From the NCBI RefSeq assembly GCF_003991155.1, contig NZ_CP031293.1: a DNA stretch of 64,000 nt. One strand, given 5' to 3'. This document shows positions 24,001 through 30,000 of this stretch, one piece after another. A program made the position numbers. Origin of the DNA: Escherichia coli. GTDB taxonomy: Bacteria; Pseudomonadota; Gammaproteobacteria; Enterobacterales; Enterobacteriaceae. Position 1 is the stretch's first letter. Each line of letters begins with the position of its first letter.

Positions 24001-27000
24001 AAATAGCTCGCCGTCTGCGCTCTCTGATCGAGAAAGAGGGCAATATGAAGGTGTACATGACGCGCAATGAAGACATCTTCATTCCGTTGCAAGTACGCGT
24101 AGCAAAAGCCCAGAAACAGCGTGCTGACCTGTTTGTCTCTATCCATGCCGACGCCTTTACCAGTCGTCAGCCGAGCGGTTCCTCTGTGTTTGCGCTCTCA
24201 ACCAAAGGTGCAACCAGTACTGCGGCAAAATATCTGGCACAAACCCAGAACGCCTCGGACTTGATTGGTGGCGTGAGCAAAAGCGGTGACCGCTATGTCG
24301 ACCACACCATGTTCGATATGGTGCAGTCGCTGACCATTGCCGACAGCCTGAAGTTTGGTAAAGCGGTGCTGAATAAGCTCGGTAAAATCAACAAGCTGCA
24401 TAAAAATCAAGTTGAACAGGCCGGGTTTGCCGTACTAAAGGCACCAGATATTCCCTCCATTCTGGTCGAAACGGCGTTTATCAGTAACGTTGAGGAAGAG
24501 CGTAAACTGAAAACGGCGACTTTCCAGCAGGAAGTTGCGGAGTCTATTCTTGCGGGAATTAAAGCGTATTTTGCCGATGGGGCGACGCTGGCGAGAAGGG
24601 GATAATGTTTTTATTTATTCAATGAATTTATATTTCGTTGAATAGATAACATTTACCTGAATATTAGACGCTGGTTTTGTGACTGATGTCGGATATTTGA
24701 ATGTCGGCTTGAAAAATAAGCCGACCATCTCTTTAATTAAGCACAATTCCGTGTAATGTATATGCATTAGTTAATCATCTTGTAACTGTTAAATCAGGCA
24801 AGGCAATGTTTGAAGTAATTATTACTTCTGACGTGCCTTGCCTTTTTTTTTGGAGCTATGGAATGATCATCGAAAAAGTCATGAACAATAATTGTGTACA
24901 GGCATCGATGAATGGACAGGAGGTTATCATTTCTGGGCCTGGCGTCGGTTACAACAAAAAATATGGAATGTCGGTCCCTGAGCATCCGGCTAACAGAGTT
25001 TTTTATGTCAGAAATGAACAAAAAAACAAACTCTATAAATTGATCGAACATGTGGATATTGAGTATGTGTTTGTTGCCGAAAAGATAGTGTACTACGCGG
25101 AGTGTAATCTTGAAAGAAAGTTAAATCCATCGCTATTGCTTATTCTTGCCGATCACATTTCAAATGCAATATCCAGAGTCTCCTCCGGAATACAAATCAA
25201 TAATTTTTTTCTTGAGGAAATCAAAGCGTTGTACAAAGCAGAATATGCAATAAGCCGGGATGCATTAACCATCATCAATGAGCAATTTAGCTTTCAACTT
25301 CCGGATGATGAGATTGGTTTTATTGCATTGCATATTTTAAATAACTATGAAAATTCATCTGATTATGAATCGGTACGGATTATTGAATTATCTCAAAAAA
25401 TCACGGAGATTATCGAGGGTATTTATAACCGAAAGGTGGACAGAAGTTCATTTAACTATTCAAGATTTATGATGCACCTTAAGTATTTTTCTAATCGAGT
25501 TTTATGTAATGAAAAGATAAAACAGAAAGATATTGGTGACATCTATGAGCAGTTTCTTGAGAAAGACATTCTGTTACAGCGCGCAATTCATGAAATCGAA
25601 AGGTATTTGTACGCCACTTTTAAATATGAATTGATTTTGGAAGAAAAACTATATCTCTCTATTCGCACCAAAGTATTAATGGACTAATTATATATAACAT
25701 TTATATGAGATAACCCGCATGAAACAAAAGAAAGCCTGGAGTTTTTTTCAGAGCCTGGGGAAGGCATTTATGTATCCCATTGCTCTGCTAAGTGTATGTG
25801 GCATGATGCTAGGGCTGGGAAGTGGTTTAGCCAGTGATGATATGGCAAAGTTAATTCCATTTCTGGCTATTCCAATAATTAAAACCATACTTGATTTCAT
25901 TGTTAGCCTTGGTTTGTTTGCCTTTGTTAATTTACCTGTATTGTTTGCGATAGCAATTCCCTTAGGATTATTAAAAGAGAAAGAGGATAAAGCCTATGGC
26001 GCTTTTTCTGGCTTAATTGGTTTTATGGCGATGCATCTGGGAACGAACTTTTATCTTAAACAGCACGACTTATTGGTCGCTGCTGACCAAATGTCGACAC
26101 ATGGGCAAACCATCATTCTGGGGATCCAGTCCTACAATACCAGCGTGTTAGGGGGAATTGTTGCTGGGTTATTAGTCGCCAGCATGTATAAAAAGATCGT
26201 TAATTTACGCATTCCAGAATCATTAGGTTTTTATAGCGGCCCACGTCTGGTGCCTATCATTACACTGATTGTGATGAGTGGATTTGGTCTGATCATTCCT
26301 TTTATCTGGCCGCCGTTTTTCAATCTCTTCATGCTCATTGGCCACTGGATATCAACTTCCGGTCCTGTTGGTTATTTCTTCTATGCAGTTGCCGAACGCG
26401 TGACGATTCCTTTTGGCTTAAACCATCTGGTGACGTCAGTTTTCCGCTTTACGCCAATCGGCGGTTCGGCTGTGATTGGCGGCGAAGAGTATTATGGCAC
26501 CCTGAACATGTTTATGGCGTACGTCAAAGAGAATGCGGTCATTCCGCTGGATTTGGCGGGGAAAATGGAACAGGGCAAACTGATGATTCAGTATGGTCTG
26601 GCTGGTGCCGCGCTGGCGATGTATCGCACTGCTCATGCTCAAAACAGAAAAGCTATCAAAGCATTGCTTATTTCCGGGGTGCTTACAGTCATTATTGGCG
26701 GCGTCAGCGAACCGATTGAGTTTCTGTTCTTATTTGTCAGTCCACTGCTGTTTGTCTTCCATGCATTTATGAATGGATTCGCCAACATGGTCTTGCCATA
26801 TATGGGCGTGAAGATGGGATTTACTGGCGATCTGATTCAATTTATTAGCTTTGGCGTATTGCGTGGCACAAGAACAGGTTGGCCAATAGCGGTGTGTGTC
26901 GAAGTGGCCTATTTCTTTATTTATTACTTTGTGTTCCGTTGGACTATTCTTAAATTTAACCTGATGACCGTAGGCCGTGAAGAGTCCAGTCCTGTCACGC

Positions 27001-30000
27001 TGAACGCTCATGAGGATACGGCTATAGCGGATATCCCAACGCTTGATAAATCAGAGCTGCAAGCAGCGGAGCAGATGGTTAAGGCACTTGGTGGTAAAGA
27101 GAATATTAAATCCCTGGATAATTGCGTAACTCGTTTACGTTTAACAATCGCAGATATGGGATTGATTGACGAGGCAGCAATAAAAAGAGCTGGCGGAATT
27201 GCGGTTGTTAAACTTGATCAAAATACCCTACAAGTCATTATCGGTACTAAAGTCATCGCCTTGCGTCGGGATATGGATAACTACATGGGGATATGCTGAT
27301 GGATGTTTTTAATACTCCTGTTTCCCGCAAAGGAACATATTGTACCCAATGGGACTTTTGCGAGGACAGATTTGGTGTAAAAGATGTATTACCATTCTCT
27401 ATTTCAGATATGGATCTTCCGATACCGGAAGCTATCATCAGGGCATTAAGAAAACGTCTGGAACACCCGATTTTAGGGTACAGTCGTTGGCAACATGGTG
27501 AATATCTGAATGCGATAGTAAACTGGTATTATCAACAATATCAAACAGATATTAAACCTGAATGGATAACCTATAGCCCCAGTGTGATGTACTCTATTGC
27601 AAAAGCAATAGAGTTATTGACATCGCATGGTGATAATATTCTCGTTTTTACACCTGTCTATAATGCATTTTTTGATGTAATTAAACATAGCGAGCGAAAT
27701 ATTCTGACAGCCTCTTTGATTATAAAAAATGAGGGGGGCTACGCTATCAACTGGCAAGATTTTGATCTTAAGATTAAAAGCGCAAAGATGGTGTTATTAT
27801 GTAATCCTCATAACCCGACAGGAACAGTCTGGTCGGAAGAAGAACTGCATAAAATCGCTGCAAGCTGTACAAGGCATAATGTCTGGTTATGTTCAGATGA
27901 AATCCATAGTGATTTTGTTTTTAATCGTAGCTTTACATCCGCGCTTAAAATAAAAAAAGAAAAAGTAGTAGTATTTAACTCGATATCGAAAACATTTAAT
28001 GTTCCTGCACTAACAGGATCGTATATGATTTCAACTGACGATAATTTTAATCATAAGTTCAGAACGATATCGAGGTATCGCGATTTTGTAAACTCCCCAT
28101 CAGTACTGAATATAATTGCAACTATTATTGCCTATAACGAATGTGAGGGATGGTTAAAGTCATTAAAGGCACATATTGCCTCTAACATTCAATTCACCCA
28201 GCAGTATCTGAATGAAAATATTCCAGAATTGATCGTAAGGCCAGCTGATGGTTGCTATTTTTCCTGGATAGATTGTTCTGCTATTGGTTATCCTTTTGAT
28301 GAATTTTACAGTCGATTAATTCATGAAGGCAAAGTGGGCATTATGGCGGGGCATGTCTATGGAACGGAGGGGGAGGGCTACCTTCGTCTGAACCTGGCCT
28401 GCGGTCGAGAAAAATTATATATGGGGCTTACGCGTCTTGTGAGTGTAATTAAAAATATTAATCAGGGAGAATAAAAATGAATAACACGGATCTTATCTAT
28501 CTCATTAAACATTTTATGCATAACGAACTTAAAGCAGTAGAAGAGGTTATTGATTCCCCACTTTCTGAATTCGCTAATTTAATTAAAGTATTACAATCTT
28601 GTCAGGGAAAAGTTGTTTTTATTGGTGTTGGTAAGTCCGGTATTATTGCCCGAAAACTCGCAGCAACTTTTGCCAGTACCGGAACTCCCTCGTTTTTTGT
28701 TCACGGTACGGAAGCGGTACACGGCGACCTTGGAATGGTGGCGAAAGACGATGTTGTTATTCTTATTTCAAACAGTGGTGAGACGGCGGAAATCCTGGCG
28801 ATACTGCCTAGTCTGAAAAAAATGGGTAATTATTTGATCTCTTTTACCCGCAGTCATCACTCATCGCTTGCGATAAGTTGTGATTTATCTGTTGAAATCC
28901 CCGTCAAAAGTGAGGCGGATAATTTAGGTTTAGCACCGTCATGCTCGTCGACTGTTGTTCTGGTTGTTGGTGATGCGGTGGCGCTTGCACTCTCTGAATT
29001 GAAAAAATTTACTCGTGCTGATTTCGGCTTATATCATCCAGGAGGTGCACTCGGCATTAAAGCAAATTCATAATTTCAAAATATAAATACAGTAACCGGT
29101 CACGCCATCTTTTGGGGTGGCGTTCTTTGAAGTGAGTGTCCGCTATGAAAAATGTTCTGGTCACCGTCCCCAGCTTTTCAGCACGCTGTGTTTCCGCCAG
29201 CAAGTTGCTAAGAGAGAATAATTTTAATCTTATTATTAAGAATAATGTGGAGCATCTGCTTAAATCAGAATCCACTGCATTACGAGAATCTATTTGCGCG
29301 GTCATCGCCGGAAAAGATTGTTATCAGGCGGACACGCTATCATTGCTGTCTGGTGTGAAAATAATATCGAGATTCGGGACGGGGATAGACAATATTGATC
29401 TTCGTGCGGCACAGCAATCAGGTATTATTGTCAATAATGCGGTTGGGATTAATTCAAATGCGGTTGCGGAATTTATCATTGGACTTATCTTCGCGAGCAT
29501 GAGAAATATCCCCGGTAGCTATCATGCGATGCAAAATGGCTACTGGGGTGAGTCGCATGGCTGCGAGTTACAAGGTAAACGTATTGGCCTGCTTGGCTAC
29601 GGCAATATTGGCAAAACACTGGCGAAAAGGTTATCTGGTTTTGATGTTGAGCTTTTAGCTTTTGACAAACAACCCGACTATCAGGTTGCTGACAAAGCTG
29701 GAGTTCAGTTTGTATCAATTGAAGATATCTTTATGCAGTCGCATGTCATCATTGTTCTTTTGCCTTTTTCTTCTGAGCTGGAGAACTTTATTAGTCATAA
29801 ATATTTGTCGATGATGCGCAATGGTGCTCTGATCATCAATGCCGCAAGGGGAAAGTTGCTGGATGAGGGCGCTTTACTTCAGGTGATTGAAGAACGAAAT
29901 GTGTTTGCGGCGCTGGATGTGTTTAGCTCTGAACCGTTGGCGCAATTTAGCCCACTGCTACATGCCAAAAATATCATTACAACGCCGCATATCGCGGCAG

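Follow-up and report, generated by a model that had tools for sequence, protein, structure and literature searches.

Why does a gene for a carbon-sulfur (C-S) lyase stand next to one for a glucose-family sugar transporter of the phosphotransferase system (PTS)? The question is raised by a locus in a 64,000-nucleotide stretch of Escherichia coli DNA (RefSeq assembly GCF_003991155.1, contig NZ_CP031293.1), hereafter the window. A preliminary description, made from the sequence alone, singled out two genes at 25719-28474, a PTS EIICB transporter and a pyridoxal 5'-phosphate (PLP)-dependent lyase, as a second pair resembling malX-malY of K-12, here placed under BglG-type control. Our analysis indicates that the two genes very probably belong to a PTS operon of the metV island that is switched by an antiterminator acting on a ribonucleic antiterminator (RAT) element, and that the lyase serves as an enzyme, not as a regulator of MalT. 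The locus is the already described c3405-c3409 PTS operon of that island and was acquired horizontally. What is new here is the RAT overlapping the leader terminator, the loss of every MalT-contact residue in the lyase, and the clade structure of a four-phylum module that is found with at least four types of regulator.

A transporter-lyase pair inside a known island operon

Both open reading frames were found where the preliminary description had placed them, and 25719-28474 corresponds exactly to the second and third genes of an operon. Five co-directional genes with one shared leader lie between amiC and the tRNA-fMet genes:

24780..24801, + strand: RAT core TTGTAACTGTTAAATCAGGCAA, unique in the window.
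24796..24851, + strand: intrinsic leader terminator, hairpin GGCAAGGCAAUG...GUGCCUUGCC followed by nine U.
24863..25687, + strand: antiterminator of the BglG/LicT family, 274 amino acids (RefSeq start), with CAT_RBD, PRD1 and a weak PRD2; c3409 equivalent.
25719..27299, + strand: glucose-family PTS EIICB, 526 amino acids, no EIIA domain; c3408 equivalent.
27299..28474, + strand: PLP-dependent beta C-S lyase of the PatB/MalY family, 391 amino acids (the other possible start, 27293, adds two residues); c3407 equivalent.
28477..29073, + strand: SIS-only, KdsD/GutQ-like sugar-phosphate isomerase (arabinose-5-phosphate isomerase), 198 amino acids; c3406 equivalent.
29145..30092, + strand: D-2-hydroxyacid (phosphoglycerate-type) dehydrogenase, 315 amino acids (RefSeq start); c3405 equivalent.

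RefSeq names these genes PRD domain protein, PTS EIIC, MalY/PatB family protein, KpsF/GutQ family isomerase and phosphoglycerate dehydrogenase. From the antiterminator to the dehydrogenase the intergenic gaps are 31, -1, 2 and 71 nt, and a terminator scan found no convincing U-tailed terminator inside the operon.

We compared the pair with known families. The transporter contains the Pfam domains PTS_EIIC (14-353) and PTS_EIIB (452-484) and no EIIA, in the EIIC-then-EIIB order that defines MalX. Its top NCBIfam model was malX, at 538.8 bits against 352 for ptsG, 325 for nagE and 243 for the alpha-glucoside model, and BLASTP aligned it with K-12 MalX over the full length at 42% identity (E 2e-143). 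Both curated MalX cut-offs lie above its scores (538.8 versus 632.2 bits for TIGR02004, 525.1 versus 665 for NF007509). The EIIB motif DNCVTRLRL is kept together with its phosphorylatable cysteine, and NCVTRLRL aligns with NCITRLRL of MalX. The lyase exceeded the PatB-family cut-off (TIGR04350, 364.4 bits versus 340), shared 37% identity with K-12 MalY over the full length (E 2e-98) and had MalY as its best solved-structure match (294 bits). NCBIfam, BLASTP and structure matches thus agree with the preliminary description in bringing the pair nearer to MalX and MalY/PatB than to other PTS or aminotransferase families.

The same description gave the two genes a 7-nt overlap. The junction reads ATGGGGATATGCTGATGGAT, with the EIICB stop codon TGA at 27297-27299, and the genes do overlap; the length depends on the start codon chosen. 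Only ATG 27293 gives 7 nt, and ATG 27299 gives 1 nt (TGATG). The shorter overlap is the more likely one, because ATG 27299 is the RefSeq start, has GGGGA (27287-27291) ahead of it across a 7-nt spacer, and matches the N-terminus of MalY.

Nearly all complete E. coli genomes (5,411 of 5,426) carry canonical malX-malY, so the island pair is indeed a second pair in the species, as first described. It is, however, a known locus (c3405-c3410), and the pair makes up two genes of a five-gene operon. In Bryant et al. 2010, c3405-c3410 appears as a set of PTS genes of the maltose/glucose type that lies inside PAI-CFT073-metV and is common to four uropathogenic E. coli (UPEC) strains, E2348 and SMS-3-5, and the title of Mosberg et al. 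2011 names an arabinose 5-phosphate isomerase of the same island. CFT073 carries the same five genes in the same order and at the same site by amiC, encoding proteins 94-99% identical to those of the window (99% for the EIICB and for the SIS isomerase), and the window region was matched over at least 80% of its length in 1,685 of the 5,426 complete genomes. We take the isomerase gene of the 2011 study to be c3406, and a urinary-tract fitness defect caused in mice by deletion of PAI-metV has reportedly been traced to c3405-10. Uropathogens are already known to carry this locus on their island, and one of its enzymes has been studied, so that finding it here is not news.

Lyase residues and the clade of the pair

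To place the lyase relative to MalY, we examined residues of its active site and of the MalT interface. The PLP lysine (MalY K233) and the equivalents of Y121, D201, H204, S230, S232 and R372 were invariant in a six-sequence alignment, which settles the conservation of the lysine that the preliminary description had proposed to check. A cryo-electron microscopy study of the MalT-MalY complex lists A84, C181, D182, E185, S218, N219, A221 and R222 as the MalY contacts. At these positions the window lyase has D, E, E, H, L, K, K and K, identical at none of the eight, and the positions vary among its orthologues. Because no contact residue is kept and every PLP-site residue is, we expect catalysis from this protein and do not expect regulation of MalT; the regulator role of MalY should therefore not be transferred to it.

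A lyase that kept the double role of MalY would bind MalT, repress the maltose regulon and create cross-talk with the mal genes. Membership of the MalY family and fold class, MalY as best structure match and the identity over the full length are in its favour. This reading is nevertheless extremely improbable, since the cryo-electron microscopy study reports that Vibrio furnissii MalY, changed only by D182C and S218V, no longer represses, and the window lyase lacks all eight contacts, which drift among its orthologues. In addition, its clade reaches into the Firmicutes, and K-12 MalY is nearer to the Clostridioides difficile lyase (42%) than to that of the window (36%). The C. difficile structure PDB 4DGT was considered as that of an orthologue and was left unused: it scores below MalY although CD3029 is 48% identical to the window lyase, and it is probably another C. 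difficile paralogue.

Many relatives of the window lyase, among them a second E. coli allele and proteins of Citrobacter, C. difficile and other Firmicutes, are closer to it than K-12 MalY is. Identities to the window proteins were as follows:

Second E. coli allele: antiterminator 92%, EIICB 97.5%, lyase 86%, SIS 96%.
Citrobacter: antiterminator 78%, EIICB 85%, lyase 69%, SIS 82%.
C. difficile: antiterminator 36%, EIICB 69%, lyase 48%, SIS 52%.
Terrisporobacter: antiterminator 34%, EIICB 64%, lyase 49%, SIS 53%.
K-12 MalX/MalY: EIICB 42%, lyase 36.5%; no antiterminator and no SIS counterpart.

We then surveyed 80 lyase loci, one genome per species. An EIICB gene lay directly upstream of the lyase gene in about 75 of the 80, in Proteobacteria, Firmicutes, Fusobacteria and Spirochaetes, and the neighbour-joining trees of the EIICB (rooted on PtsG) and of the lyase were congruent. 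One clade was always accompanied by antiterminator and SIS genes; it holds E. coli, Citrobacter, Atlantibacter, Enterobacter ENT03, one Enterococcus termitis locus, Clostridium KNHs214, C. difficile, Terrisporobacter and Solobacterium. The phylogeny of the EIICB that the preliminary description had called for placed the window protein in this clade, apart from K-12 MalX. MalX and MalY of K-12 fall in another clade, composed of the MalI-linked pairs of Enterobacterales, Providencia and Vibrionaceae, and a MalI homologue was found only beside pairs of the MalX clade. The genome of Enterococcus termitis has both types of pair (L014, L035), like the E. coli island strains. More distant pairs occur in Bacillaceae, Enterococcus, Lactococcus, Fusobacterium and Brachyspira. 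There the module adjoins RpiR/MurR-type regulators in Bacillaceae, Enterococcus and Lactococcus (L029 4565-6334; L030 5460-6239; L038 5533-6306) and a regulator with Mga helix-turn-helix and EIIA_2 domains in Brachyspira (L028 4404-6107), so that at least four types accompany it: antiterminator, MalI, RpiR-type and Mga/EIIA-type. Similar large unassigned regulators stand beside the module in Fusobacterium and in some Vibrio.

Judged from these comparisons, the pair is a paralogue of malXY of long standing and not a recent copy, and an antiterminator context is typical of its clade. The suggestion of a close paralogue in a new regulatory context accordingly did not hold: the pair belongs to a separate, old clade that always comes with antiterminator and SIS genes, and C. 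difficile CD3030 shares 69% identity with its EIICB, as against 42% for MalX. The four-gene core of antiterminator, EIICB, lyase and SIS isomerase is conserved from Enterobacterales to Clostridia; in C. difficile, CD3031-CD3027 are annotated as antiterminator, malX, malY, phosphosugar isomerase and EIIA. When neighbourhoods were checked for hints of the substrate, no gene past this core was conserved with the cassette. The dehydrogenase, which scored 216 bits against the NCBIfam phosphoglycerate dehydrogenase (PGDH) model, under its cut-off, is confined to enterobacterial versions. Only in Terrisporobacter is the cassette followed by transketolase and phosphomutase genes.

The adjacency in about 75 of 80 loci and the congruent trees point to a functional coupling of transporter and lyase. 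They bear directly on the possibility that the lyase is a general cysteine or cystathionine beta-lyase, releasing H2S, pyruvate and homocysteine, that is merely co-expressed with the PTS and has no action on the compound taken up, sulfur amino-acid turnover being linked in this way to carbon supply. All characterised relatives use cysteine, cystine, cystathionine or cysteine S-conjugates, and for C. difficile MalY both cysteine desulfhydrase activity in vitro and essentiality have been reported. We consider this reading possible, though doubtful: so loose a link would not be expected to hold the two genes together through four phyla with congruent trees, and it leaves unexplained a four-gene unit without a glycosidase or other enzyme for the PTS product.

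The predicted antitermination switch

The first gene of the operon encodes a protein with CAT_RBD at residues 1-55 (E 3.6e-14), a PRD at 73-160 (E 1.3e-21) and a weakly matched second PRD at 178-251 (E 0.0024) by Pfam. It scored 227 bits against the NCBIfam LicT model, whose cut-off is 300, and the structures of LicT and GlcT were its best PDB matches. The regulatory histidines of LicT are H100, H159, H207 and H269. Equivalents of the first three are kept; the fourth is Arg268 (25664-25666) in E. coli and Citrobacter and a histidine in C. difficile and Terrisporobacter.

The leader is 257 nt long. Its RAT was found once in the 64 kb, and none of 100 shuffles gave a match to the consensus used, which we take to be the form seen in Bacillus subtilis sacB/licS and E. 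coli bgl. The 3' half of the RAT, GGCAA, also forms the 5' arm of the terminator hairpin. This terminator was found by folding (-30.3 kcal/mol, z -4.2, with none of 200 shuffles as stable); a simple scan missed its long, interrupted stem. No Rfam family matched the leader, and the search of the window returned only tRNAs and a sub-threshold small-RNA hit inside an insertion sequence, ISApl1. The BglG-type control first proposed for the pair is thus matched by its predicted elements, a CAT_RBD and PRD gene upstream and a candidate RAT overlapping a terminator, and the accompanying statement that no MalI-type repressor lies by the pair agrees with the absence of any LacI/MalI-type gene from the window.

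The same elements recur across the clade. The second E. coli allele and Citrobacter share the RAT without change, and in Citrobacter paired changes preserve the stem of the terminator; a canonical RAT, GGATTGTAACTG..CAGGCAAAACC, is present in C. difficile and Terrisporobacter. All 10 of the antiterminator/SIS loci have a RAT and a terminator, the strict motif in 6 and a variant RAT in the other four; by comparison, the strict motif occurred in 0 of the 70 other EIICB-lyase loci (1.2 Mb). The RATs of Enterobacter ENT03 and Enterococcus termitis carry a compensatory change from CUG..CAG to CUA..UAG. Distant RATs differ in loop length, and we therefore report this single clear pair instead of a covariation count. 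Terrisporobacter has two RAT-terminator units. In C. difficile three or four tandem units with a period of about 104 nt lie between the antiterminator gene and malX, their number depending on the strain (L005 5999-6400; L017 1177-1560; L018 6095-6380).

Such a strong leader terminator on AT-rich foreign DNA, with no recognisable strong promoter, a degenerated PRD2, and some E. coli lyase entries fused or truncated, might mark the cassette as a cryptic, silenced relic like bgl of K-12, with no current function in E. coli. Against this, the ratio of nonsynonymous to synonymous substitution rates (dN/dS) between the two E. coli alleles was 0.03-0.14 over all five genes (0.135 for the lyase), indicating purifying selection on each of them, the cassette is intact in 1,685 complete genomes, and a contribution to fitness in urinary-tract infection of mice has been reported. 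We regard a relic as improbable.

The lyase is the most diverged protein between the two alleles, at 85-86% amino acid identity compared with 97.5% for the EIICB, 96.5% for the SIS protein and 97% for the dehydrogenase. The lyase gene of the second allele (L008 8001-9209) is extended and overlaps the SIS start, and several E. coli and Shigella database entries are lyase-SIS fusions of 550-592 amino acids (P0002-P0005, P0009, P0010).

Proposed role and comparison with known systems

From these elements we propose the following model of the operon. When no substrate is available, phosphorylated EIICB would keep PRD1 of the antiterminator phosphorylated and the protein inactive, and transcription would halt at the leader terminator. 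When substrate is present, phosphate would drain to the sugar, and the antiterminator would dimerise on the RAT and block the terminator. The antiterminated transcript would switch on the antiterminator itself and the four downstream genes. In E. coli the phosphate donor is probably EIIA-Glc (Crr); Firmicute versions encode their own EIIA. The lyase would most likely be an enzyme acting on, or downstream of, the imported phospho-compound, and the SIS isomerase would feed a sugar-phosphate product into the pentose phosphate pathway, converting arabinose-5-phosphate to ribulose-5-phosphate in keeping with the in vitro activity reported for the CFT073 protein. As no extra conserved gene lies past the core, lyase and isomerase must between them be able to deliver the PTS product to central metabolism. 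In Terrisporobacter, the genes for transketolase and a phosphomutase fit an exit through the pentose phosphate pathway.

Several points weigh against this model. No sigma-70 promoter match was found on the + strand at 24606-24780. The weak PRD2, together with arginine at the His269 site, suggests that, in the enterobacterial branch, activation through HPr may depart from the LicT model or be lost. The specificity of the EIICB is not readable from its family name, given a MalX score below the cut-off. Finally, the characterised enzymes of the PatB family use cysteine, cystathionine or cysteine conjugates.

A rival view concerns the isomerase. If its role were anabolic, it would supply extra arabinose-5-phosphate for 3-deoxy-D-manno-octulosonate (Kdo), and hence for lipopolysaccharide or capsule in pathogens, and the PTS and the lyase would be unrelated to it. 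KdsD is its best family match, it goes by the name arabinose 5-phosphate isomerase in the title of Mosberg et al. 2011, and a review places it in lipopolysaccharide supply. However, only 2 nt separate the lyase and SIS genes, and the SIS gene holds the same position in C. difficile, Terrisporobacter, Enterococcus termitis, Clostridium and Solobacterium. Its retention in Gram-positive members, at 52-53% identity, argues for a catabolic role and against Kdo supply; those members are not known to make Kdo. An anabolic role is thus highly improbable.

The RAT-switched operon with a catalytic lyase remains the reading that we prefer, and within it the survey sharpens the question of why genes for a C-S lyase and a glucose-family PTS transporter stay together. 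Gene adjacency, tree congruence, the lack of any other enzyme for the PTS product and a freely swapped regulator argue for an enzymatic link between transporter and lyase. In one speculative and rather unlikely form of that link, the pair would in two steps take up and cleave a sugar linked to an amino acid, for instance cysteine or serine bearing an S- or O-linked glycosyl group and left over from glycoproteins of the host or of plants. The PTS would phosphorylate the sugar, the lyase would remove the aglycone by beta-elimination, the task of a phospho-glycosidase elsewhere, and in the SIS clade the sugar phosphate would be isomerised into the pentose phosphate pathway. If true, this would explain the presence of a C-S lyase in malXY-type operons, and the binding of MalT by MalY would be a late add-on in one enterobacterial and vibrio branch.

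The setting of the cassette bears on the comparison with CFT073. Through the window, the core genes argA and amiC are followed by a low-GC stretch (0.34-0.46 across the cassette, about 0.53 in the flanks), three tRNA-fMet genes and mltA. The features flanking the operon are:

24703..24725, + strand: terminator-like hairpin GTCGGCTTGAAAAATAAGCCGAC, 9 pairs, directly 3' of amiC.
30117..31186, + strand: ISApl1 (IS30 family), 1,070 bp, flanked by a 2-bp target duplication and outside the operon.
31243..31539, - strand: three tRNA-fMet genes, metZWV, at the right edge of the island site.

The hairpin is likely to mark both the end of the amiC transcript and the left edge of the inserted cassette. 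ISApl1, an IS30-family element best known from mcr-1 transposons, is complete and lies between the dehydrogenase stop codon and the first tRNA-fMet gene, with its duplications at 30115-30116 and 31187-31188. It is missing from the best-matching, otherwise identical genomes and is therefore a strain-specific insertion. The sub-threshold Rfam match, to the actinobacterial small RNA Ms_IGR-7 (30118-30218, - strand; 27.7 bits against a gathering score of 45), falls in its left end and is almost certainly due to chance.

In PAI-metV of CFT073 the cassette is separated from the tRNA genes by a type VI secretion cluster (L090 1-19291), whereas in the window (30093-31242 compared) and in the genomes that match it best the cassette occurs by itself, followed in the window by ISApl1. 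The PTS cassette and the secretion cluster are therefore separable modules of the metV island. In E. coli, as in Atlantibacter, the cassette occupies the amiC/tRNA-fMet site; in Citrobacter and Enterobacter ENT03 it lies elsewhere.

Compared with KdsD, GutQ and KpsF, the window SIS protein lacks the two C-terminal CBS domains (198 amino acids versus about 320-330). Its SIS domain aligns to positions 24-201 of the 328 in the KdsD model (201 bits), and the protein scored 194.4 against the NCBIfam kpsF cut-off of 203.7. Unlike those genes, its gene is part of a PTS operon and occurs in Gram-positive bacteria as well.

With the BglG, SacY, LicT and GlcT systems (E. coli bgl, B. subtilis licT-bglPH and ptsGHI) the locus shares the CAT-PRD1-PRD2 architecture, the overlap of RAT and terminator, and a cognate EII in the operon. 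It differs in that its only RAT-terminator stands ahead of the regulator gene, an arrangement of auto-control, with none between regulator and EII; in that the second PRD2 histidine is arginine; and in having a PLP-dependent lyase in place of a phospho-glycosidase.

CD3031-CD3027 of C. difficile 630 has an orthologous four-gene core in the same order under RAT-terminator control. There, however, the RAT-terminators lie between the antiterminator gene and the EIICB gene, in contrast to the single one ahead of the antiterminator gene in the window. C. difficile and Terrisporobacter have an EIIA in place of the dehydrogenase, and C. difficile keeps the fourth regulatory histidine.

The malI-malX-malY locus of K-12 shares a glucose-family EIICB followed by a PatB-family lyase, and likewise has no EIIA. 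It differs from the window operon in its divergent LacI-type MalI and in lacking RAT, antiterminator, SIS gene and dehydrogenase, and MalY of K-12 has the MalT-binding patch that the window lyase is without. A MalT-independent, RAT-controlled operon, whether that of E. coli or that of C. difficile, would thus be a cleaner system than malXY in which to find the true substrate.

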